The position numbers and the translations under genes were made by a program. From an uncultured Mycoplasmatota bacterium (GTDB lineage Bacteria; Bacillota_I; Bacilli_A; RF39; UBA660): a DNA stretch of 64,000 bases. The notes under the pieces are model-generated. The model was given only the letters and a program-made list of their open reading frames with translations. It had not been told where the DNA came from and did no database searches. This document shows positions 8,684 through 39,693 of this stretch, piece after piece (position 1 is the stretch's first letter; every line of letters begins with the position of its first letter). The DNA lies in assembly GCA_900546715.1 (NCBI GenBank), contig UREA01000003.1, forward strand, positions 11,189 through 75,188, in the 5' to 3' direction.

Positions 8684-8786
8684 ATGTCATATATTAACTT
8701 AAACTTCCACGACATTTTGTGTCAATTTTTTATTGACATCAAATGTCATATGAAATATAATTAGAATATAGACGCGGAATGTCGTG
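8684..8786. promoter_or_regulatory. divergent promoter/operator region between the XRE gene and surface-protein paralog 1
   Basis: Perfect TTGACA (8733-8738), 17-nt spacer, TATAAT (8756-8761) facing the + gene. ATGTCATAT occurs at 8684-8692 and 8743-8751. A perfect 9-bp inverted repeat CACGACATT (8708-8716) / AATGTCGTG (8778-8786) is also present. Confidence 0.55.
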
Positions 8787-8795
8787 AGGTGTGAT

Positions 8796-10553
8796 ATGAA
8801 GGAGAAAAAAATAATATTAATTGGAATAAGTAGTGTATTTGTAATGGCTTTACTAATTACAACATTAACACTTACTTTAGGTGGTGATAATGATAATGTA
8901 TTATTAAGCGATAATGCAAATGATAAAAATTTAATTAACAATTCATTTTTAACCTTAATGTTAGAACAAAGTGATGGAACATATAAAGAATCAACTTCTA
9001 ATACATGGCCAAGTGGTAATTATGCTTTTAATGAAACATTAAGCAGGTGTGAAAATGGGGGAGAACTAAAGTGGGATAGAGAAAAAGGCATAGTAAATCT
9101 ACTTAGTAATAAATCAGATGCTTGTTATGTATATTTTGATTTATATAATGCAGTAGAAATTACTGATGTAAATACAACAAAAACAACAAATAGTGTTACT
9201 CTAACAGTAACAGTAGAAGCAGGAGAAAATCCAATAGCAACATATTATTTTAGTATGGATGGTGGTAATAGTTATCAAGAAAGTAATACCAACACTTATA
9301 CATTTAGTAATCTTGATAATGGAACAACATATACTTTTCAAGTGTATGTTGTAGATACAGAAGGTTATGAATCAAATGAAGAAGTAATAGAAGTAACTAC
9401 AGATAACTATGTAAATCCTGTTGTTAATAGTGTAACAGCAACAAGTGTAACAAATAATACAATAACAGTAAGTGTATCAGCAAGTGCGGGAACAAATGCA
9501 ATAGGAACATATATGTATTCCATAAATAATGGTTCATACACAAGTTCAAGTAGTAATACTCATACATTTAGTGGACTTTCTGCCGGAACAAGTTATACAA
9601 TAAAGGTAAAAGTAAAAGATACAAACAACATAGAATCAAGTGAATATACAATAATCACAAAAACAGAAGATACAGTATTATTAGCAGATTATATAAAGAG
9701 TAAATATACAAGCCAAAGCTCAAATGGACTTTATTATCATACAAGTTCACTAGCAAATTCAGCAGGAGATAATAGCTATAGGTATGCCGGAGCAAATCCA
9801 AATAACTATGTGTGTTTTGGTTCAAGTGCAGCGACATGCCCAAGCAATAATCTGTACCGAATAATTGGTGTTTTTGGAGATGAAGTAAAATTAATCATGG
9901 CAGATTATCCAACAACGAGTCAAACAGGAACAATAGGAGCATATTTTGACACATATTCAAGGGTAGGATTGAGTTCTAGTAATTATAAAGGAAATCAAAG
10001 CTTATCATCAGTAGGAACATATTATTGGAATCGGAATCCAAGCGGAAGCAATACATGGAGTAGTAGCAGTTTGGTAACAACAAACTTAAATACAACATTT
10101 TTAAATAATATAAGTTCGATATGGAGAAACAAAATAGCTGACAAAACGTGGTTTGTAAATGGATATGGTACATATAATGCAACTCCAAAAGAATTTTATA
10201 ATGCAGAAAGTAGTGGAACGACATGGAGTGGAAAGGTAGGATTAATATATGTAAGTGATTACGGATATGCAGCAAGTAATAGTTTATGGTCAACAATTAT
10301 GGGTTCTTATTATAAATCGTCAATAACAAGTAATAATTGGATGTATATGGGATTAGACGAATGGACAATTTCCCGGTGTTCTAGTAGTAATAGCTATGCA
10401 TACCGAGTAAATAATTCTGGCAATGTATACTACCATTACAGTGATTACTTGTATTACCGATATTATGCTATCCGTCCTTGTTTCTACCTCATCTCATCAA
10501 CTCAATATGTCAGCGGATCAGGAACTCAATCTGACCCAATTCGCATAAATTAA
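8796..10553 (+). CDS. membrane-anchored surface protein, paralog 1 (N-terminal TM, two FN3-like repeats, C-terminal lectin-like/DUF6273-like domain)
   Basis: GAGGTG RBS and ATG at 8796. Repeated about 90-aa modules (ITV.V.ASAGTN..TY.YSINNGSYTSSSSNT.TFSGLSAG.SY). C-terminal pattern NNWMY.G..EWTISR...RV...G.V....IRPCFYL...SGSG..DPIRIN. Confidence 0.75.
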   Translation: MKEKKIILIGISSVFVMALLITTLTLTLGGDNDNVLLSDNANDKNLINNSFLTLMLEQSDGTYKESTSNTWPSGNYAFNETLSRCENGGELKWDREKGIVNLLSNKSDACYVYFDLYNAVEITDVNTTKTTNSVTLTVTVEAGENPIATYYFSMDGGNSYQESNTNTYTFSNLDNGTTYTFQVYVVDTEGYESNEEVIEVTTDNYVNPVVNSVTATSVTNNTITVSVSASAGTNAIGTYMYSINNGSYTSSSSNTHTFSGLSAGTSYTIKVKVKDTNNIESSEYTIITKTEDTVLLADYIKSKYTSQSSNGLYYHTSSLANSAGDNSYRYAGANPNNYVCFGSSAATCPSNNLYRIIGVFGDEVKLIMADYPTTSQTGTIGAYFDTYSRVGLSSSNYKGNQSLSSVGTYYWNRNPSGSNTWSSSSLVTTNLNTTFLNNISSIWRNKIADKTWFVNGYGTYNATPKEFYNAESSGTTWSGKVGLIYVSDYGYAASNSLWSTIMGSYYKSSITSNNWMYMGLDEWTISRCSSSNSYAYRVNNSGNVYYHYSDYLYYRYYAIRPCFYLISSTQYVSGSGTQSDPIRIN

Positions 10554-25662: not shown

Positions 25663-25785
25663 ATGAGTAAATCAAGAAGTTCAGCTAGAAGTAATGCAAG
25701 AAACAATTCTAAAGCTTCTAGTTCAAGTAGTGCAAGAAGTAAAGCACGTAATAATGCAAATGCTCGTAACGAAAACTGTAATTAA
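25663..25785 (+). CDS. 40-aa basic low-complexity peptide
   Basis: Own translation MSKSRSSARSNARNNSKASSSSSARSKARNNANARNENCN. GGGAGG RBS 7 nt upstream. Below the ORF-track length cutoff. Confidence 0.4.
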   Translation: MSKSRSSARSNARNNSKASSSSSARSKARNNANARNENCN

Positions 25786-26687
25786 TTAATTCCATTTTCT
25801 TTATGAGCTCGAGGATGATGATTATAATCTTCCTCGATTTTTTTATTGCTCAAATGACTATATATTTCCGTTGTAACTAAATTCTCATGTCCTAATAATT
25901 CTTGAATAACTCTTAAATCTGCACCATTATTAAGTAAGTGCGTTGCAAAAGAATGCCTTAAAGTATGTGGTGAAATATCTTTATTTATATGAGCTTCCTG
26001 AGCTAACTTCTTAAGTATCTTAAAAAATCCTTGTCTACTTATTTTATTACCGTCTTTATTTATAAATACATAATTACTGGTTTTAGTTTTTAGTAAAAAC
26101 CTCCGATATTCATTTATGTATAAAGTTAAAAATTTTATTGCGGTATCACCAAGTGGCACAATTCTTGTCTTTTTGCCTTTGCCAAGTACTCTTATAATAC
26201 ATTCATCAAAATCTATTTGATTGAGCTCTAAATTGGTAAGTTCACTTATTCTAATTCCTGTTGCATATAATACTTCAAGCATTGCTTTATTACGATAATC
26301 AACTGGTTTAATAAGTCTTATATCAAGTAGTTTATCTATCTCTTCATCAGTTAAATAATTAGGCAGTTTCTTCTCAAGCTTTGGAGCTTTAATACTATCA
26401 CAAGGATTACTATTAATCTTTTTATTAAAGATCATATAATTATAAAATGAATTAAAAACCGACAAATAATGAGCTTTAGTTTTAGTACTGGCCTCTACAT
26501 TTAATAAAAAATTTCTTATATCATCACTATTTAAACTTAAGGCATCTTTCCTAGTCTGTTCTAATAACATTAATAAATTTTCTCCATAAGAATCTATAGT
26601 ATTATCTGATAATCTTCTTTCATATTTTAAATATTCTAAATAATATACAACATTTTCATCTTTAATATTTTCAATTATATTTTTCAT
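25782..26687 (-). CDS. xerD: tyrosine recombinase XerD-type
   Basis: ATGIRISEL, HTLRHSFATHLL..GADLRVIQELLGH....TTEIY and a terminal HPRA. Confidence 0.85.
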   Translation of the reverse strand: MKNIIENIKDENVVYYLEYLKYERRLSDNTIDSYGENLLMLLEQTRKDALSLNSDDIRNFLLNVEASTKTKAHYLSVFNSFYNYMIFNKKINSNPCDSIKAPKLEKKLPNYLTDEEIDKLLDIRLIKPVDYRNKAMLEVLYATGIRISELTNLELNQIDFDECIIRVLGKGKKTRIVPLGDTAIKFLTLYINEYRRFLLKTKTSNYVFINKDGNKISRQGFFKILKKLAQEAHINKDISPHTLRHSFATHLLNNGADLRVIQELLGHENLVTTEIYSHLSNKKIEEDYNHHPRAHKENGIN

Positions 26688-30799: not shown

Positions 30800-30822
30800 A
30801 CAAACTCACTTTCCAAAATAAA

Positions 30823-30992
30823 ACCTAGAAGGTAGCTGCGTAGATAAAAACCCGCTCTCAGCAGGTGGGCATCACATGACCTACTTTAGGATCCTTATGC
30901 ACTTAATGGATAAGTCTTCTACACCATAGATCAATTAGATTCCCGTATATCATATTTAGTCGGTTTTATAATGACAGGCTACCTTACTAGGT
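30823..30992 (-). ncRNA. ssrS: 6S RNA candidate
   Basis: TTGCAA, 17-nt spacer, TATAAT (-10 at 30999-31004). Locally GC-enriched, about 170 nt. The ends pair (ACCUAG.AAGGUAGC with GCUACCUU.CUAGGU, then AUAAAACC/GGUUUUUAU), giving a rod with a large central bubble and a terminal arm. It sits next to the yrvM/tcdA homolog, as B. subtilis bsrA does. Confidence 0.55.
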
Positions 30993-31054
30993 AATTTAAT
31001 TATATCAAATTTATTATATCTTTGCAATAATTTTAAATTAAAAAGAAGCATAAT

Positions 31055-31864: not shown

Positions 31865-32012
31865 ATTATTATTATACTCTCCTTTTCAAAAGTATGCATC
31901 TATTATAGCACATTTTGATAAAAAATGCAAATCAGCACGAACAAACGTATCCTTTGCATCAAATAATTAGGGTCATATCGTAATATGACCCGTTTTAATA
32001 TTTTTATCTATT

Positions 32013-33845
32013 TTATGCCATAGTTATATCTGGTATATCACTAAGTGGTGTATTATCCCCTACTGGATTTGGTGTAACTGTGCTGCTCGCCTGTGGTTGT
32101 AATCTCCAGCAAGCGGATACATCACAGTTAGATGAATATGGCATTGGGTTTGGCATTTCCATTTTAACAATCATTGGTATTTTAAAGGCTCCACCAAAAC
32201 AAACACAATTACCAGGTTGTAATACTTTTTGTTTATCTAGAATATCTGCTGAAATATTTGGAAGCATTTCGCCAATATATTTAATATCAAGTGGGTGAGT
32301 CATCTTAAATATCAAGAAATTATTACACTGAGCAATAACTGTATCAGATATTTCTACTGGTCTTTGACTAATAATATCAAGAATTACCCCATATTTTCTT
32401 CCTTCTTTAGCAATACGATCAAAGATATTATAACCAAGTAAGAATGTATCATTATCTTTTTGAATATATCTATGAGCTTCTTCTAAAAATAAATGGAAAG
32501 GTATTGTAGCTCTTTCACTTCTACCTTTAGAAAAATCAAATATCATTCTTGAAAATATCTTAACAAATACTTTAGCATATATATCATCAACATCTTCTAA
32601 ATTAATATTTATTATTTGGGCTTTTCTAGCTCCATTGGCAACTAATGATGATATATAATTTGGTAGTGTTACATATTCACTACTAAAGAATCTATTTAAT
32701 TTACTATTAATAATCGAATTTAGTCTAACTTTCAAAATTGTGGCATCATCATGTAAGTTTTGATTATGTTGAAATCCTTCACTAATTAAAGTAAATTCTA
32801 GGGCTGCCGCAAAATCCTTCAGTGAATATGCGGCCTTCTCCGGTTCTTTAATTGAATCTAAGTCATCATTAATTTTACTTAAAATATAATTAGTAATTAG
32901 TACTGATTCTCCAAAATTACCATTAGAATCTATTTCAAAACATTCACTTAAAGTTCTAGTATATCCAAGCCCCGGTATTACTGAATCAAAATTAAATTCT
33001 GGTGTATGACATACTTCAATTATTGTAAATATTTCATTTTTCTTGCTAGCTACTGTTTCATTTGAAAATAATACTGCAAGTAAAGCTTTAGCAATTAAAT
33101 GATTTTTATATTGATTAGCTTCTTCACTATTAGTTGAAAATATTTTAGCAAGTTTAATAGTATGTTCAATTATTGGTAGTTGGGCATGATCACTTGCTTG
33201 AAATAATAAGGCAAAATCATCTAATGTAAGTAGATTTACAGGAATACTTAATGGAATATCTGTATCATCTTGGGGATTCGTTGTAATAAATTTATAACAA
33301 TAATTAGGATTTATTTCATTAAGTTTTCCAAAAGCATTTTTATATTCCCCAAATGAATCAAAGATAAATAAATTAGCATTATATTGGACATTAAACTTAG
33401 AATTAAAGATATTTTGAATAATTCTAGCCACCCCACAAGATTTACCAGAACCAGAGTTACCAAATATTGCTAAGTGATTAGAAAACAAATTATTAATATT
33501 TGGACATATCTTAAATCCTTTATAAATAGCACTTTCTCCTAAAACAAAGCTTGATTCATCATAGGTACCAACAAGTTCCATTAATTCAGCTTGATTAATC
33601 ATTCTTATTTTACTTGTTAAAAGCGGCTTTCTTAAAACCCCATTTACATACTTACCATTAATATATTCTCCTAAAAATCTTATTTTAATAACTTGACTAC
33701 CAAGTTCAAATACTTCTCCAAGAATTCTTTGTTCTCCTTCTTCAAATATAACATTTAAATTCATTAAATCAGCAGCACTAGCTTCTGTATTTAAATTTTC
33801 TACATGAGCTTCACTATCACCAATATAAACTATTTTTCCAAACAT
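32013..33845 (-). CDS. HerA-type (FtsK-HerA superfamily, DUF87) ATPase
   Basis: N-terminal HAS-barrel-like region (GKIVYIGDSEAHVE...ILGEVFELGSQVIKIRFLGE). Walker A FGNSGSGKS, Walker B HLFLEEAHRY, and EGRKYGVILDIISQRP. Confidence 0.8.
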   Translation of the reverse strand: MFGKIVYIGDSEAHVENLNTEASAADLMNLNVIFEEGEQRILGEVFELGSQVIKIRFLGEYINGKYVNGVLRKPLLTSKIRMINQAELMELVGTYDESSFVLGESAIYKGFKICPNINNLFSNHLAIFGNSGSGKSCGVARIIQNIFNSKFNVQYNANLFIFDSFGEYKNAFGKLNEINPNYCYKFITTNPQDDTDIPLSIPVNLLTLDDFALLFQASDHAQLPIIEHTIKLAKIFSTNSEEANQYKNHLIAKALLAVLFSNETVASKKNEIFTIIEVCHTPEFNFDSVIPGLGYTRTLSECFEIDSNGNFGESVLITNYILSKINDDLDSIKEPEKAAYSLKDFAAALEFTLISEGFQHNQNLHDDATILKVRLNSIINSKLNRFFSSEYVTLPNYISSLVANGARKAQIININLEDVDDIYAKVFVKIFSRMIFDFSKGRSERATIPFHLFLEEAHRYIQKDNDTFLLGYNIFDRIAKEGRKYGVILDIISQRPVEISDTVIAQCNNFLIFKMTHPLDIKYIGEMLPNISADILDKQKVLQPGNCVCFGGAFKIPMIVKMEMPNPMPYSSNCDVSACWRLQPQASSTVTPNPVGDNTPLSDIPDITMA

Positions 33846-33854
33846 AATATTCTC

Positions 33855-34313
33855 CTATTCTACAATAAATTCTCTATCTCCCATAATAAAATTTCCTAAA
33901 ACTCCATCATCTATGGGTATAAAATACATAAGTATTTCATCACTATCTTCTATTACCTTATTTACATGATAAGTTAAATTAATCTGTGTATCCAACACTT
34001 CTACTTCAATTTCATCATAAAATTCTAATGTATCATCATAATTAATAAAATCTACAATATAATCATTAGTATTTAAATCATTTGCAGTTAAGAAAACTAA
34101 TTCATGAATATCATAATCTGCCAAAAAAGCTACATACTCTTCATATGTTTTAATCAATGTTGGATTATAATAAGTATTATCATCTTTTTTTATAACAATG
34201 CCTTCCACTACTTCTCTATAACTATTGCCTCTAGTACCTAAATAAATCCCTAAACAAGCGGCCCCTAAAACAATTATTATAGCAAGCGTCGTAATAAATA
34301 ATCTTTGTCTCAT
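33855..34313 (-). CDS. bitopic membrane protein (about 152 aa), HerA-operon gene 2
   Basis: MRQRLFITTLAIIIVLGAACLGIYLG TM segment. ATGA overlap with the upstream gene and a 9-nt gap with an AGGAG RBS before the HerA gene. Confidence 0.65.
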   Translation of the reverse strand: MRQRLFITTLAIIIVLGAACLGIYLGTRGNSYREVVEGIVIKKDDNTYYNPTLIKTYEEYVAFLADYDIHELVFLTANDLNTNDYIVDFINYDDTLEFYDEIEVEVLDTQINLTYHVNKVIEDSDEILMYFIPIDDGVLGNFIMGDREFIVE

Positions 34314-35077
34314 AAAATCTCCGTACCAATCCAATTATAATGATCATTATTAATAATAAAACTACTTCTATAACTTACTCTTCTTCTAGTTAAATGTTTA
34401 TTAATATATTCATCTAATGTTAAATTATCTTCATTTACATCATTACTATTAAATTCCAATAACACTTCCTCATATAAACCATTACTATATACTTTATATT
34501 CTACTACTCCATCAATACTCTCTTCACTATAAAAAAGTATACTTTCATCTAAATATATTTTATCATCACTTATGCTAATATTTTCTATATCTCTATCAGC
34601 TTTATAAAGTATTCCTTCATAATCAAGTATATTACATACATATTCTTGATTTATATATTCACAATTATTCTTTCCATTTACATTAAAACTTTCATTTACT
34701 ATTATTTTATCATTTCCATACATATTACTTACAATGTTAATAAGTTCATTACTATCAATTTTACTTTCACTTACACTATACATTCCTTTAGTAAGCAATA
34801 TCTTATTATCTATATCTTTTATAGTTACTAACTTATCTTGATAAGAACTTTTATACTCTTTATTATTTACAGTAACATATGGTATTAAATTCTCAAGTTC
34901 TAAACTTAAAGAATCTACTCCTCCATCAAAATTAACAACTGTATTAATATCCATATCACTACTATCTTTATTAATCCAATTATTAACATAAAGCAATATA
35001 CAAATAACCAATAACAATATAAATATAATAAATCCCAGTATTATATTTTCTTTTCCTTCTTTAGTATCATATTTCAT
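34310..35077 (-). CDS. bitopic membrane protein (255 aa), HerA-operon gene 1
   Basis: Single N-terminal TM segment (IILGFIIFILLLVICILLYV) and an Asn/Asp/Tyr-rich ectodomain. Extended -10 (TGTTATACT) upstream. Confidence 0.65.
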   Translation of the reverse strand: MKYDTKEGKENIILGFIIFILLLVICILLYVNNWINKDSSDMDINTVVNFDGGVDSLSLELENLIPYVTVNNKEYKSSYQDKLVTIKDIDNKILLTKGMYSVSESKIDSNELINIVSNMYGNDKIIVNESFNVNGKNNCEYINQEYVCNILDYEGILYKADRDIENISISDDKIYLDESILFYSEESIDGVVEYKVYSNGLYEEVLLEFNSNDVNEDNLTLDEYINKHLTRRRVSYRSSFIINNDHYNWIGTEIL

Positions 35078-35142
35078 TTATATCACCTATTCTTTAATAA
35101 AAGTATAACACAAAACCTATATTTAAGTAAATAATGTATTGT

Positions 35143-35196
35143 AAAAAAACTGATAAACTATCAACTTTTAACTTTGACATATTTATCAGTTTTTAT
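35143..35196. terminator. bidirectional terminator between paralog 2 and the HerA operon
   Basis: ACTGATAAA/TTTATCAGT stem flanked by an A-run and a T-run. Confidence 0.45.
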
Positions 35197-35262
35197 TTTA
35201 ACATTTATATTCTTTGAAATTATATATTTTTAAATTAATTTATAAAAATTTACACACTTCTA

Positions 35263-35515
35263 TTGACAAGGTCTCCATTCGCTCTAAAATTCACCCCGCT
35301 CGCCTGGACCGCAAGGGCCCTAGACGAGCAATGTCCTAGCCTCAATTCACACGAATCGGGTCAGTGGACAAGCCACTTCCCGATGCATATGTTATCGAAG
35401 ATGTTAGATAAAAGACTGGCCGCACGCCGTGCGAATTGCTCACTGTACTGTCAGAGACATCGCCAGCGGAATCCACTCGAAAGGCAGCAGTCGAAACGTA
35501 CGAATCGCGGGAAAT
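35263..35515 (-). other. GC-rich recoded cassette covering the last 57 codons of paralog 2 plus about 80 nt of 3' flank
   Basis: Hand count gives about 55% GC against a background of about 27%. Codons switch to TCG/CGC/GCC/GGC/CGG/CCG right after the conserved EWTISR. AT-rich sequence resumes abruptly at 35262. Confidence 0.8.
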
Positions 35516-37036
35516 AGTCCATTCTTCAGAACCTAAGTACATCCAATTATTGTCTCTAACAGTGGTTGAATCATAACTACTTAATCCTGTTGTCCAATTA
35601 CTATTACTTGCCGCATATCCGTAATCACTTACATACATCAAGCCAATTTTGGCACTATATGTTGTACTACTTGAGCTACTTCCTACTTCGTAATTGTATG
35701 CTGCTTTTGGTGTTCTTATTCCATTTGAATATATCATTCCTCCTACTTTCCAGTTTGTTGTTGCTATCTTATTTTGCCATGTACTACTTAATCCACTTAT
35801 ATATGTTCCATTTAATGTCCCTGTATTTAATGTACTACTACTCCATCTATTAATTCTACTTGAGTTTGATCCACTCCAATAGTAGTTTCCTATACTTGTG
35901 TTTTTGATTAGTTTTACTTGATTGCCAAATACTCCTATTATTCGATACAAATTATCACTTGGACATGTACTTGCAGTACTTCCAAAACAGACATAATTAT
36001 TTGGATTTGCCCCGGCATATCTATAGGAACTATCACCTGCTGAATTAGCTAAACTACTTGTATGATAATATAGTCCATTTGAGCCTTGGCTTGTATATTG
36101 ATTTTTTATACATGTTGCTAAATTTGTGCCAGTATTGCAAATATATGTTACACTTTCTGTTTCGGCATTTATTGTATATACATTTGAATCTACTCCATTG
36201 GTATCTTTTACATATACTCTTATACTATAATTTTGTCCAGCACTTAATCCACTAAATGTATAGGTATTTGAGCTTGAACTTGTATAACTTCCATTATTTA
36301 TTGAATAATAATAGTTTTGAATATTGTTTGTTCCTCCACTTGCATTTACACTTACCGTTATTGAATCATTACTTACACTTGTTGCTGTTACACTGTTTAC
36401 TGTAGGATTTACATAGTTATCTGTTGTTACTTCTATTGTTTCTTCATTTGATTCATATCCAAGTGTATCTTTTGCATACACTTGGATAGTATATTCATGA
36501 TTCATCGTTAAATTACTAAATATATAACTTGGTGTACTACTTTCTTGATAACTGTTTCCCCCATCTATACTAAAATAGTATTTATCTACAGGATTTTCTC
36601 CTCCAGATGTAGTTATTGTTACAGTTATACTATTATAAGTTTTTGTAGATTCTACATTACTTATTTGTACTACATTATATAAATCAAAATATACATAACA
36701 AGCATCTGATTTATTACTTAATAATTCTACTATACCTTCTTCTCTATTCCATCTTAGTTCTCCACCATTTTCACATCTACTTAATTCACTATTAAAAGCA
36801 TAATTTCCACTTGGCCATGTATTAGTTGTTGATTCTTGATATGTTCCATCACTTTGTTCCAACATTAATGTTAGAAATGAATTATTGATTAAGTTTTTAT
36901 TGTTATTGTTGTTAGCCATAAAATTGTTTTGATTATTATTTTTAATCAACATAAAACAAATTATTGTTATTAACATAATTATAAATATACTTCCTATCAA
37001 AATTATTTTTTTGTGATTTTTTACCTTTTCCATCAT
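35342..37036 (-). CDS. membrane-anchored surface protein, paralog 2 (TM, two FN3-like repeats, lectin-like C-domain)
   Basis: Collinear with 8796..10553 over the N-domain, both FN3-like repeats and the C-domain scaffold (YRYAGANPNNYVCFGS, NLYRIIGVFG, GLMYVSDYGYAAS, EWTISR, RPVFYL, DPIRVN). AGGAG RBS. Confidence 0.8.
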   Translation of the reverse strand: MMEKVKNHKKIILIGSIFIIMLITIICFMLIKNNNQNNFMANNNNNKNLINNSFLTLMLEQSDGTYQESTTNTWPSGNYAFNSELSRCENGGELRWNREEGIVELLSNKSDACYVYFDLYNVVQISNVESTKTYNSITVTITTSGGENPVDKYYFSIDGGNSYQESSTPSYIFSNLTMNHEYTIQVYAKDTLGYESNEETIEVTTDNYVNPTVNSVTATSVSNDSITVSVNASGGTNNIQNYYYSINNGSYTSSSSNTYTFSGLSAGQNYSIRVYVKDTNGVDSNVYTINAETESVTYICNTGTNLATCIKNQYTSQGSNGLYYHTSSLANSAGDSSYRYAGANPNNYVCFGSTASTCPSDNLYRIIGVFGNQVKLIKNTSIGNYYWSGSNSSRINRWSSSTLNTGTLNGTYISGLSSTWQNKIATTNWKVGGMIYSNGIRTPKAAYNYEVGSSSSSTTYSAKIGLMYVSDYGYAASNSNWTTGLSSYDSTTVRDNNWMYLGSEEWTISRDSYVSTAAFRVDSAGDVSDSTVSNSHGVRPVFYLTSSITYASGSGLSTDPIRVN

Positions 37037-37279: not shown

Positions 37280-38371
37280 CTAGGTATTAACTATTTCCCT
37301 CTTTTCTTTATTTTCTAATAATTTATCGACATCAACATTATTAATAGAATCAAATCTCTTAGTAATTTTTTCACTGGTTGTACTTAGTTCATCAATACTT
37401 TGATTGACAGTTTTAACACTTCTTGATAATTTATCCCAACGATCTTTAAATCTGGTAAATTCTATACTTAGTTTACTTAATTCTTCATGAATAATCTTCG
37501 TATATTTATCTCGTTCCATATTTTTTAGAATCATACTAATTATTGATAATGTAGAAATTAAAGTTGTAGGTCCGGTGATCCACACCCTTTTATTATAAGC
37601 ATAATTTATTAAATCAGGGTGATAAGCATTAATTTCCGCAAATAGTGCTTCAGCTGGTAAAAACATGATAGCTTCATCTGATGTTTCACCAGGAATTATA
37701 TATTTTTCAGAAATATCATTGATATGTTTTTTAACATCAGCCACAAATAGCTTTTCGGCTTGATCACGGATTTGTTTATCTTTAGTTTTATCAGTCATTC
37801 TTTGATAGTTTTCTAGTGGAAATTTAGAGTCAATTGCAATAGTTCCAAGTGGTGCTGGAGCATATAAAAGAGCATCAACTATAGCACCATTAGAAAATTT
37901 ATGTTGAGTTTCATAAATACCATTTCTTGAACCAAAGGCATTATTTAAAATATATTCAAGGTTTACTTCCCCAAAAGTTCCTCTAGTTTTTTTATCAGTT
38001 AAAACATTTTGCAGTGATATAATTTCTCCATTTAGACTATCTATTTTCTTTTGAGCTTCATCAATTTTAGATAAACGCTCTAACACATCCATAAATGTTT
38101 TATTACTCTTCTCAAAATTCTTATCTAATCTTTCATTAACAGTATCACTAATAAGAGTTAATTTTCTTTCAATTTTCTCATTTAATTTTTCAAAATCAGT
38201 CATTAAATCTTTTGAAAAGCTAAATTTAAAATCTCCAATTTCTTTATTGATATTAGCTTCAAAATGCCCAATTCTCTCCATTAAATCATTATTATTTTGT
38301 CTTCTTACTAAAAGTACTATTAATAAAATAATAACTAATACCAGTAAACCAATTATTATATATTCTATCAT
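37280..38371 (-). CDS. rmuC: DNA recombination protein RmuC
   Basis: N-terminal TM segment, long coiled coil, and a C-terminal nuclease-like region (AIDSKFPLENY, MFLPAEALF). Confidence 0.85.
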   Translation of the reverse strand: MIEYIIIGLLVLVIILLIVLLVRRQNNNDLMERIGHFEANINKEIGDFKFSFSKDLMTDFEKLNEKIERKLTLISDTVNERLDKNFEKSNKTFMDVLERLSKIDEAQKKIDSLNGEIISLQNVLTDKKTRGTFGEVNLEYILNNAFGSRNGIYETQHKFSNGAIVDALLYAPAPLGTIAIDSKFPLENYQRMTDKTKDKQIRDQAEKLFVADVKKHINDISEKYIIPGETSDEAIMFLPAEALFAEINAYHPDLINYAYNKRVWITGPTTLISTLSIISMILKNMERDKYTKIIHEELSKLSIEFTRFKDRWDKLSRSVKTVNQSIDELSTTSEKITKRFDSINNVDVDKLLENKEKREIVNT

Positions 38372-38373
38372 TT

Positions 38374-39693
38374 CTATCTCCCTACATAATCATCAATACA
38401 AAATATAGCATAGATTGGTACTGATTTAATTTTAGTTTTCTCATCATATCCAAAATTTTTAGTACTTATTCTAATTGCATATTTTGGCTTGTATAAATCT
38501 ATATATTTAGTTAAACTTTTTGATGTAACATTTTTATTAGCTTTTACTTCCATAGGAATAATTCCATCTTTAGTATAAAGTAAAAAATCTATTTCATAAT
38601 CATCATTTCTCCAATAATAAAGATTATATTTTTTGCATACTAATTGATTAGCCACATAGTTTTCAGCAATTACTCCTTTATATAGGGATATATTATCCGT
38701 TAATATATCACTAAGAGAAATATTTAATTTATAATTAAGAATTCCTACATCACTTAAATACAATTTAAATGCATCCGTATCAACAAAACCTTCAAGAGGA
38801 ACTTCTGGTAATTTAACCGCTTTGGCTTGTAAAACCAAATTACTTGCTAAAAGCCAATCTAGAGCTGATTCGTAATCTCTACTTCTAGCATTACTATCAA
38901 TTTTGGAATATTGAAACTTATTACTAAGATTAGAAAGTTGGTTAGGTAAAGAATCATAAATACGTGATACTTTTAATGATTCAGCATTATTTTTTACATA
39001 TTTTTGCATATCATTAAAATATCCTTCAACAATACTGGGAATAATATTAGTATTATATTTAATGTAGTCCTTATTAACATCTAACATGTTTTGAATTGAT
39101 TCAGGCATTCCTCCAGTTATTAGATAGATACGATACAAATTTAGAGCTTTTTCATGAACGGGATTAGATACAGCTTTGTTTTCGGCATAACATTTATTAA
39201 ATAATTCTATCATGTTATTTTCTCCCATCGCCCACAAAAATTCTTCAAAATCCATGGGATACATATTAAGCATTGCAACTTTACCAACTGGGAAAGCTTT
39301 TTTTAATCTTTTTAATTTTAATCCTAGTAATGAACCAGCACAAATTATATGCATTTTGGGATGTTCTTCATTAAAATACTTAAGTTCGGAAATTAATTCT
39401 TCACTTTCTTGTATTTCATCAATAAAAAGACAAGTATCATCTCCCTCTAATTCACTATCAAGTAATACCTTCAATTGAAGAAACTTTTCATCAGAAGTAA
39501 AATTTGATTTATATAAATCAATTATATTATCTTGAGAGAACAAATTTACATAAACAACATTTTTATAGTTATTTTTACAAAATTCTTTAATTATATAAGT
39601 TTTTCCACATTGTCTTACTCCCATAAGCATTAAAGGTTTGGCATTTAAAGTATTTTTCCACTTTATAAGTTCATCATATATTTTTCTTTTCAT
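38374..39693 (-). CDS. AAA-family ATPase with DUF4143-type C-terminal domain
   Basis: Walker A GVRQCGKT, Walker B CLFIDEIQ, and a C-terminal EIDFLL...IPMEVK restriction-endonuclease-like motif. Confidence 0.75.
   Translation of the reverse strand: MKRKIYDELIKWKNTLNAKPLMLMGVRQCGKTYIIKEFCKNNYKNVVYVNLFSQDNIIDLYKSNFTSDEKFLQLKVLLDSELEGDDTCLFIDEIQESEELISELKYFNEEHPKMHIICAGSLLGLKLKRLKKAFPVGKVAMLNMYPMDFEEFLWAMGENNMIELFNKCYAENKAVSNPVHEKALNLYRIYLITGGMPESIQNMLDVNKDYIKYNTNIIPSIVEGYFNDMQKYVKNNAESLKVSRIYDSLPNQLSNLSNKFQYSKIDSNARSRDYESALDWLLASNLVLQAKAVKLPEVPLEGFVDTDAFKLYLSDVGILNYKLNISLSDILTDNISLYKGVIAENYVANQLVCKKYNLYYWRNDDYEIDFLLYTKDGIIPMEVKANKNVTSKSLTKYIDLYKPKYAIRISTKNFGYDEKTKIKSVPIYAIFCIDDYVGR

Follow-up and report, generated by a model that had tools for sequence, protein, structure and literature searches.

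A HerA-family ATPase conserved across an order of uncultured gut Bacilli, with lineage-restricted membrane-protein genes beside it

To our knowledge, the HerA ATPases described so far in bacteria fall into two groups, those paired with NurA in DNA end resection and those acting as the motor of SIR2 or DUF4297 anti-phage systems. In archaea, the Ced DNA-import system combines a HerA/VirB4-like ATPase with small membrane proteins. Here, we analyzed a 64,000-nucleotide stretch of contig UREA01000003.1 from an uncultured Mycoplasmatota bacterium (from here on, the window; ca. 26% guanine-plus-cytosine [GC] content and ca. 89% coding), in which a HerA-family gene (gene 3) follows two genes for small membrane proteins, g1 and g2 (Table 1). 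An earlier reading of the letters without database searches (the sequence-only reading) had proposed an undescribed, membrane-tethered system made of these three genes. The comparison with related loci does not bear this out. The ATPase belongs to a clade that fits neither described group and is an order-wide core chromosomal gene of its lineage, and g1 and g2 are lineage-restricted, dispensable and fast evolving. The explanation that we prefer, with a probability of about 55%, is that the locus is a composite of a conserved housekeeping-type HerA ATPase and unrelated surface-protein neighbors in variable slots.

The NurA-HerA end-resection complex is known from archaea, Deinococcus and Thermus (HepA); nurA directly adjoins herA in these systems, often overlapping it, and Thermus HepA is encoded among unrelated metabolic genes (PMC5448004, PMC9960219). 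Thermus thermophilus TdtA, the hexameric DNA-donation ATPase of ICETh1 and a member of the HerA/FtsK superfamily, is found partly in the membrane fraction, has no signal sequence and is encoded on a mobile element that also carries the genes for a NurA-like nuclease and a restriction enzyme (PMC5365140). HepA and TdtA, both NurA-linked, are the closest functional precedents for gene 3. By profile, its nearest solved relatives are the SIR2-HerA and DUF4297-HerA complexes (9c1m, 8xau, 8wiv, 8yho and 8j4u; E values from 3.5e-69 to 1.7e-51), to which it corresponds over the full length, with a RecA-like core bearing the Walker A and B motifs and, before it, a putative barrel region at the N terminus. 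Unlike them, it has no adjacent SIR2 or DUF4297 gene in 163 loci, stays far below the equivalog cutoffs, is found order-wide in housekeeping synteny and has a family-specific PNPxPxSSNCDV...W motif, often with a long disordered tail behind it. With the NurA-HerA complexes it has in common the family (4d2i, 5.4e-49 with the family profile), a chromosomal location and a plausible housekeeping role in DNA maintenance, but no NurA-like gene stands beside it in any locus. None of the NCBIfam equivalog cutoffs of the named HerA subtypes was reached by gene 3, the scores being 171 versus 850 bits for HerA_antiphage_2 (the top hit), 147 versus 800 for HerA_antiphage, 120 versus 800 for HerA_Thermprot, 85 versus 970 for helicase_HerA, 68 versus 600 for CedD and 14 versus 325 for the VirB4-like conju_CD1110 (E = 0.0096). 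For each of the NurA-HerA, SIR2-HerA, DUF4297-HerA, VirB4/TraC and Ced types, a defining feature was looked for and was not found, and gene 3 is counted with none of them.

Judging from its sequence, gene 3 is a genuine P-loop ATPase of the HerA family (FtsK-HerA superfamily), and a soluble one. It matched the Pfam model of the DUF87/HerA central domain (PF01935) with 76.7 bits (cutoff 23.2; E = 3.7e-21), a domain that was also found in all 10 distant homologues scanned, and its strongest PADLOC match was the HerA model PDLC04102 (355 bits, E = 1.7e-106). Its significant PDB matches were HerA proteins throughout. The family profile (A3) had its best match in 9c1m (HerA-DUF4297), and the other top matches were 8wiv and 8yho, both SIR2-HerA, and 8xau, an ATPase-nuclease defence complex whose PDB entry names an “ATP-binding protein” and “HerA.” The alignment with 8yho covers the full length (profile positions 15 to 567 with chain residues 16 to 544). 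In the N-terminal region, profile position 15 falls on residue 16 of 8yho and positions 42 to 215 fall on residues 63 to 238 of 8wiv, which supports homology to the N-terminal domain of the solved HerAs; the Pfam HAS-barrel model gave no match. The motifs GNSGSGKS, LEEAHRY and ISQRP, by which a HerA-type ATPase had been recognized at first sight, are in place, and that assignment is confirmed by these matches. The Cys-containing C-terminal tail described at the same time stands only in part. The Cys-containing segment, PNPMPYSSNCDVSACW (residues 565 to 580), is real but is a family-wide motif that, to judge from the alignment, is the true end of the conserved ATPase fold, and the actual tail consists of the variable 30 residues behind it. 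Behind the conserved W, the homologues have between 1 and 423 residues of low-complexity sequence, and no end peptide of the partner-recruiting type, as in SSB or FtsZ, is common to them; the tail encoded in the window is thus a variable appendage. A GC-rich patch (32041-32160) coincides with the tail end of gene 3. Many homologues carry very long, Ser/Asn/Thr/Pro-rich and apparently disordered tails (up to 423 residues) after the motif, as in L078:4090-7122 (1010 residues), L124, L115 and L082 and in the proteins P0275, P0276 and P0282, and others stop 1 to 6 residues past it. The C-terminal extensions of long homologues (829 to 943 residues) were considered as a clue to a fusion and contained no extra Pfam domain, only low-complexity sequence.

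The locus set comprised 163 ATPase-bearing loci, in which open reading frames (ORFs) were called, proteins were clustered and gene positions were tabulated relative to the ATPase. All carriers in this set are metagenome-assembled genomes (MAGs) of uncultured low-GC gut Bacilli or “Tenericutes.” Homologues of the ATPase run into thousands, and the top 120 are all at least 79% identical, with Candidatus Onthocola stercorigallinarum and “Bacilli bacterium” MAGs as the named carriers. A profile scan of a collection with one genome per species gave at least 563 relatives, the best 80 of which are 52 to 98% identical and come from MAGs labeled as uncultured gut Bacilli, “Tenericutes” or Erysipelotrichaceae, including one complete chromosome of 1.34 Mb. 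Metagenome contigs contributed at least 518 relatives, which, like those in the genomes, all stem from low-GC gut Bacilli or “Tenericutes” MAGs, and a second scan seeded with relatives of 30 to 40% identity added 80 metagenomic loci with 23 to 35% GC. There is nearly always a single copy of the gene per locus. Between the window and one related locus (L009), identity is 77% for HerA, 76% for RarA, 66% for GpsA, 53% for ThiF, 49% for a GH73-like protein, 34% for g1 and 32% for g2; the ATPase is conserved more strongly than RarA, GpsA and ThiF of the same loci. Viral contigs contained no relative above 35% identity. The literature on this clade or on partner-less bacterial HerAs yielded only NurA- or defence-linked systems, which is weak evidence of absence given the thin coverage of subscription journals.

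Three contexts recur around the ATPase. The first, in which the genes were identified from sequence, has the order ftsY, a small protein with two or three transmembrane (TM) helices, ylxM, HerA and ffh; ylxM is directly upstream of HerA in 58 of the 163 loci, with ftsY farther upstream and ffh downstream. The position between ylxM and ffh is found across a large clade (L110, L121, L124, L150, L159 and others; e.g., L110:6001-7743 and its flanks), and a membrane protein of ca. 92 residues between ftsY and ylxM, to which no family could be assigned, is conserved in 39 loci. The second context, to which the window belongs, runs gatC-gatA-gatB, variable slot, HerA, variable slot and ThiF-like gene, beyond which GpsA and RarA are encoded in the other direction; gatA and gatB are found upstream in ca. 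36 to 40 loci and ThiF downstream in 47. In the third, present in several loci, HerA precedes dnaA and dnaN. In the clade L086-L090 (e.g., L086:6001-10848), HerA lies directly upstream of dnaA-dnaN, i.e., in the presumed region of the replication origin. The remaining neighbors are mixed housekeeping genes, among them those for acetate kinase, Fmt, RpoZ, EF-Ts, MetRS, EzrA and UvrC.

Genes for NurA, SIR2 or DUF4297 were absent beside the ATPase from the Pfam-annotated neighborhoods of the loci examined, and none was found with 148 representatives of the neighboring families among the matches listed (PADLOC, and the best 25 of 135 families for Pfam). At the window locus itself, Pfam, NCBIfam and PADLOC revealed none of the usual HerA partners, also when g1, g2 and the two flanking proteins (Fn3-like and GH73-like) were included. 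Their absence, noticed from the letters of the window, thus extends to the 163 related loci. The wider surroundings in the window are of the housekeeping kind (CTP synthase, AsnB, an LtaS-like sulfatase, YebC, RarA, GpsA and 6S RNA). Taken together, the housekeeping contexts, the lack of viral relatives above 35% identity and the lack of partners indicate a core chromosomal gene, belonging neither to a mobile element nor to a typical defence island.

ORF calling placed g1, g2 and gene 3 consecutively on the minus strand, with the junctions that the sequence-only reading had given: the g1 stop and the g2 start overlap in ATGA at 34310-34313, and 9 nucleotides separate the g2 stop (TAG) from the ATG of gene 3, with an AGGAG overlapping the g2 stop codon. 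The trio is probably co-transcribed as one co-directional unit, closed behind gene 3 by a terminator-like hairpin (Table 1). Such spacing is nevertheless uninformative on joint function in this genome, since 19 of the 51 co-directional neighbor pairs in the window are separated by 10 nucleotides or less (14 of the 51 overlap), including pairs of unrelated function such as RarA/GpsA (-4 nucleotides) and RmuC/AAA_14-DUF4143 (2 nucleotides). The same applies to promoter-like sites, which fit the picture of an operon but are no evidence for it because they are as frequent as in shuffled sequence (53 in the window versus 52.6 expected). The AT-rich hairpin upstream of g1 probably terminates the preceding Fn3-like gene, as far as its sequence tells.

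Both small proteins have a single N-terminal TM helix, as the sequence-only reading had it, and no recognizable domain. Their short basic N-terminal tails, together with one helix each, imply that the bulk of g1 and g2 should be extracellular. The Cys at position 20 of g2 is not conserved and there is therefore no lipobox. The ectodomain of g1 has an invariant pair of cysteines, C139 and C148 (alignment A1), which fits an extracytoplasmic location. Searches of Pfam, NCBIfam, PADLOC and PHROG returned no family for either protein, and no significant fold match emerged from Foldseek. The AlphaFold2 model of g1 (predicted local distance difference test [pLDDT] score of 66) is confident for residues 150 to 255, a beta-rich C-terminal half, and its matches in the PDB were weak, nonsignificant NTF2-like and ARC6-IMS structures (best E = 0.22). 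That of g2 (pLDDT 75, predicted template modeling score 0.70) predicts a small alpha/beta ectodomain with no match in the PDB (best E = 1.9) or BFVD (best E = 0.18). The detectable homologues number 109 for g1, which have 48% identity or more and lack Pfam domains, and 45 for g2, all at least 59% identical.

The distribution of g1 and g2 speaks against the three-gene proposal. Hidden Markov model searches found them solely in loci with an ATPase of at least 76% identity to that of the window, and these loci form one clade in a neighbor-joining tree of the ATPase. In more distant loci, both are absent, and ylxM, gatB or another housekeeping gene precedes the ATPase, i.e., the synteny that a three-gene machine would lead one to look for is not kept. 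Even within the clade, a nested group (L001-L005, L008, L134, L135 and L144, including “Firmicutes bacterium CAG:460”) has neither gene, with gatB or an Fn3-like gene directly before HerA; three loci have kept g2 alone (L153, L157 and L162), one has kept g1 alone (L011), and L009 has an extra gene of 280 codons separating g2 from HerA. In searches from the g1 side, g1, g2 and HerA kept their order in all loci with g1, even where its identity had fallen to 48%. The two genes evolve 2 to 3 times faster than the ATPase. In L006, which bears the same species name as the window, DNA identity is 90 to 99% over HerA and 75 to 85% over g1 and g2, dropping sharply at the g2/HerA junction (window 33855-35077 versus L006:536-1764), so that the g1-g2 cassette diverges or is exchanged independently of the ATPase. 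Protein searches returned discrete allele groups, 100% and then ca. 80% for g2 and ca. 98% and then ca. 72% for g1. These groups and the identity break suggest that alleles have been replaced or that the surface proteins are under diversifying selection. Restricted to one subclade, lost singly and jointly, with cytoplasmic tails of 4 to 10 residues and a cassette of their own, g1 and g2 behave as variable surface proteins and not as subunits co-evolving with the motor, and a HerA machine tethered to the membrane through them is not supported.

According to the composite explanation, a deeply conserved HerA ATPase would occupy a fixed chromosomal position with variable slots on either side, and in this genus-level clade, the upstream slot would have gained surface-protein genes (Fn3-like, g1 and g2). 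The slot that hosts Fn3-like proteins also holds, in this window, an RmuC gene and a PDC-S01-like ATPase; this pair is absent from the position in related loci, so that the region upstream of HerA behaves like a variable one or an insertion hot spot. g1 and g2 would be a rapidly diversifying, lineage-restricted extracytoplasmic pair, each anchored by its N-terminal helix, and co-transcription with the ATPase would reflect the tight packing of unrelated genes in an 89%-coding genome, not joint work. The ATPase itself would form a soluble hexameric ring driving the translocation of double-stranded DNA with ATP, and its role may lie in housekeeping DNA maintenance, for instance in the processing of ends, in recombination or in the handling of the chromosome, by analogy with the SIR2-HerA, DUF4297-HerA and NurA-HerA structures (PMC9960219, PMC11514289, PMC11291478). 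A nuclease partner, if any, would be encoded elsewhere or would not be needed.

Several points weigh against this explanation. All carriers of this ATPase clade are uncultured and its function is inferred from sequence; the DNA substrate, in particular, is taken from homology to solved HerAs with ca. 25 to 30% identity. No NurA-like partner was seen beside the ATPase, and distant sites in the genomes were not searched. The persistent g1-g2-HerA order fits a functional link as well as plain inheritance of gene order. The last point, a mild one, is an enrichment in membrane proteins. A same-strand, single-pass membrane protein adjoins HerA in 48 of 137 loci (35%), belonging to 18 BLAST families, of which 9 families (23 loci) are tightly coupled to it (gap of 30 nucleotides or less). 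The background of single-pass proteins is ca. 18% among genes of at least 100 codons in the same loci, and 0 to 23% next to other conserved genes there, a weak comparison in that the loci lack phylogenetic independence and the controls were all taken near HerA. So many membrane neighbors are not expected of an enzyme that acts on DNA in the cytoplasm alone, and the composite explanation does not account for them. One of the families, single-pass proteins of ca. 141 residues (cluster 22), is encoded just behind HerA in translational coupling with it, the gaps being -32 to +8 nucleotides (L053:9758-10192 and nine more loci); it occurs in a clade without g1 and g2 and has no detectable similarity to g2. 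The adjacent membrane proteins were also considered as divergent homologues of a single partner, but in hhalign comparisons of 16 families, the probability stayed at 24% or below throughout, and the alignments covered the TM helix only.

This enrichment keeps alive, at a low probability, the idea of a membrane-linked HerA machine, in which fast-evolving and interchangeable single-pass partners (g1/g2, the GH73-like protein, the 141-residue family and others) would work with HerA to drive DNA or protein through the envelope; Thermus TdtA, the archaeal Ced system and EssC are the models for such a machine. TdtA is the closest precedent for a membrane-associated HerA as first proposed (PMC5365140), and the Ced motor is likewise encoded beside small membrane proteins. 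The coherence of the g1-g2-HerA order, a GH73-like gene that lies on either side of HerA depending on the lineage and the place of HerA within the signal recognition particle operon (ftsY, small TM protein, ylxM, HerA and ffh) of a large clade point the same way. We still regard such a machine as unlikely. In 65% of the loci, there is no such neighbor, the neighboring families resemble one another in profile-profile comparison only by the TM helix, and their enrichment was measured against controls near HerA in non-independent loci. Losses of g1 and g2 left no visible change in the conservation of HerA, from which they diverge independently with a sharp break at the junction; the cytoplasmic tails, of ca. 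4 to 13 residues, are short, and neither a TM segment nor an amphipathic anchor was seen in HerA. Gene 3 also differs from tdtA in its conserved core chromosomal position, with no nuclease beside it and no mobile-element features, and g1 and g2 differ from the Ced proteins in being single pass with large ectodomains, not polytopic and channel-like, and in being missing from most ATPase-bearing genomes. A broader proposal, that these ATPases are an unrecognized housekeeping branch of HerA without NurA, SIR2 or DUF4297, core in an order-level group of gut Bacilli with reduced genomes, placed within the signal recognition particle operon in many lineages, coupled time and again to single-pass envelope proteins that are not homologous, in many members extended by long disordered tails, and powering an envelope-linked translocation, seems to us similarly improbable. 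The process might then be DNA exchange or uptake, or the export or assembly of surface proteins, and g1 and g2 may be the form that an exchangeable extracytoplasmic module has taken in one lineage.

A role in anti-phage defence, in which HerA would be sensor or motor, like its counterparts in the SIR2-HerA and DUF4297-HerA systems, and variable membrane effectors would kill or arrest the infected cell, is less credible still. The best profile matches are indeed defence-type HerAs (PDLC04102, HerA_antiphage_2, 9c1m, 8xau, 8wiv and 8yho), the flanks are variable, and the window has, next to the RmuC gene, an AAA_14/DUF4143 ATPase that matches the PADLOC defence-candidate family PDC-S01 at 1e-144. 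But the two antiphage models fall far under their cutoffs and no locus examined has a SIR2 or DUF4297 neighbor. Defence genes are typically patchy with a fast turnover, and the pattern here is the opposite: order-wide, usually as the sole copy in the locus, in housekeeping synteny and conserved beyond RarA and GpsA. The large ectodomains of g1 and g2, with the conserved disulfide-type Cys pair, are those of surface proteins and not of pore-forming effectors. An origin in a conjugative or phage-derived mobile element, with a VirB4/TraC-like or terminase-like ATPase, is effectively refuted, since the weak conju_CD1110 match, PHROG matches (phrog_7035 at 3e-63 and a terminase family over 55 residues) and a tyrosine recombinase gene 5 kb away are outweighed by the distance of conju_CD1110 from its cutoff, the synteny of the recombinase in 38 loci (hence a XerC/D-like enzyme and not an element integrase), the housekeeping surroundings, the viral-contig search and a GC content that is uniform apart from two short patches. 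The probability that is left over belongs to something other than the composite explanation and these three rivals.

The other features of the window are listed in Table 1. Downstream of gene 3, the sequence-only reading had placed a membrane-anchored GH73 peptidoglycan hydrolase with its own promoter; a distant GH73-like protein with a membrane anchor and a promoter-like site was indeed found, but its Pfam match is below threshold (Glucosaminidase, 18.7 bits versus a cutoff of 30.2; E = 0.003) and such sites do not exceed chance. The same sub-threshold match (E of 0.01 or less) was obtained for 11 of 13 members of the family. With the family profile, the cell-wall hydrolase of a phage (PDB 8yxk) was matched at 2e-7; E166, itself invariant, stands in an ES/TG context that is likewise invariant. 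The gene is present in 25 related loci, mostly downstream of HerA and in a few upstream (L023, L025 and L033). On the other flank, the variable surface-protein gene that had been noted beside g1 proved to be an Fn3-repeat protein of 564 residues (Pfam fn3 at 1.9e-08), homologues of which immediately precede HerA in L008, L134 and L135 and follow it in L158. A block of ca. 260 nucleotides (35262-35525) with 48 to 60% GC, which occurs once in the window, covers the last ca. 180 nucleotides of this ORF and runs into the intergenic region before g1. It had no Rfam match at E of 1 or less, and its folding z scores (-1.68 on the minus strand and +0.94 on the plus strand) do not mark it as a structured RNA; candidates for its origin are a foreign segment, a recombination cassette and an RNA.

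Table 1. Positions of the genes, motifs and signals of the HerA locus and of other features of the window
Feature	Position	Strand	Basis or remark
Fn3-repeat paralogue, membrane-anchored	8784-10553	+	second such surface protein in the window
Tyrosine recombinase gene	25782-26687		conserved, syntenic in 38 related loci; 5 kb off the locus
6S (SsrS) RNA gene	30818-30996	-	Rfam, 50.7 bits versus gathering score of 46.4; between ThiF-like and GH73-like genes
Promoter-like site with TG extension	30999..31027	-	near 6S RNA
GH73-like membrane-anchored putative peptidoglycan hydrolase, 269 residues	31055..31864	-	separate transcription unit, downstream of gene 3
TG-extended promoter-like site	31902..31931	-	upstream of the GH73-like gene
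Intrinsic-terminator-like hairpin, 9-bp stem followed by T-rich tract	31970..31991	-	sequence; directly 3' of gene 3, ends the g1-g2-HerA unit
Gene 3 (HerA-family ATPase)	32013..33845	-	ORF, 610 residues
Pro/Ser/Thr-rich variable tail, 30 residues	32016..32105	-	sequence; locally high GC
C-terminal motif PNPxPxSSNCDVxxxW, residues 565-580	32106..32153	-	in nearly all of 165 homologues; P567 and W580 invariant in A3
ATPase-core motifs EGRKYG (residues 481-486) and ISQRP (residues 492-496)	32358..32405	-	G482, K484 and G486 invariant, R483 nearly so, in A3
Walker B region HLFLEEAHRY, residues 451-460	32466..32495	-	E455 nearly invariant, A457 invariant in A3
Walker A GNSGSGKS, residues 129-136	33438..33461	-	G129, G132, G134 and K135 invariant in A3
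g2	33855..34313	-	ORF, 152 residues counted from its ATG
g2 TM helix, residues 5-26, after a tail of ca. 4 residues (MRQR)	34236..34301	-	sequence and hydropathy
g1	34310..35077	-	ORF, 255 residues
g1 TM helix, residues 11-31, after a cytoplasmic tail of ca. 10 residues	34985..35047	-	sequence and hydropathy
Promoter-like sites upstream of g1	35219..35246 and 35102..35131	-	count not above chance expectation
AT-rich hairpin with T-run	ca. 35140-35190	-	sequence; between the Fn3-like gene and g1
Fn3-like membrane-anchored surface protein, 564 residues	35342..37036	-	Pfam fn3; upstream variable slot
RmuC-family protein (363 residues, N-terminal TM helix) and AAA_14/DUF4143 ATPase	37280-39693	-	2 nucleotides apart

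What is new here is an order-wide, partner-less clade within the known HerA family. The gene belongs to the core set of a large, genome-reduced group of uncultured gut Bacilli and has no dedicated partner gene adjacent to it, and its strict retention in genomes of ca. 1.3 Mb implies that the ATPase likely does something important. On the practical side, the case is a warning that start/stop overlaps and shared transcription are weak evidence of joint function in compact low-GC genomes. The role of this clade, whichever it is, would widen the known functions of bacterial HerAs, with NurA-free DNA repair, chromosome handling or a membrane process as candidates.

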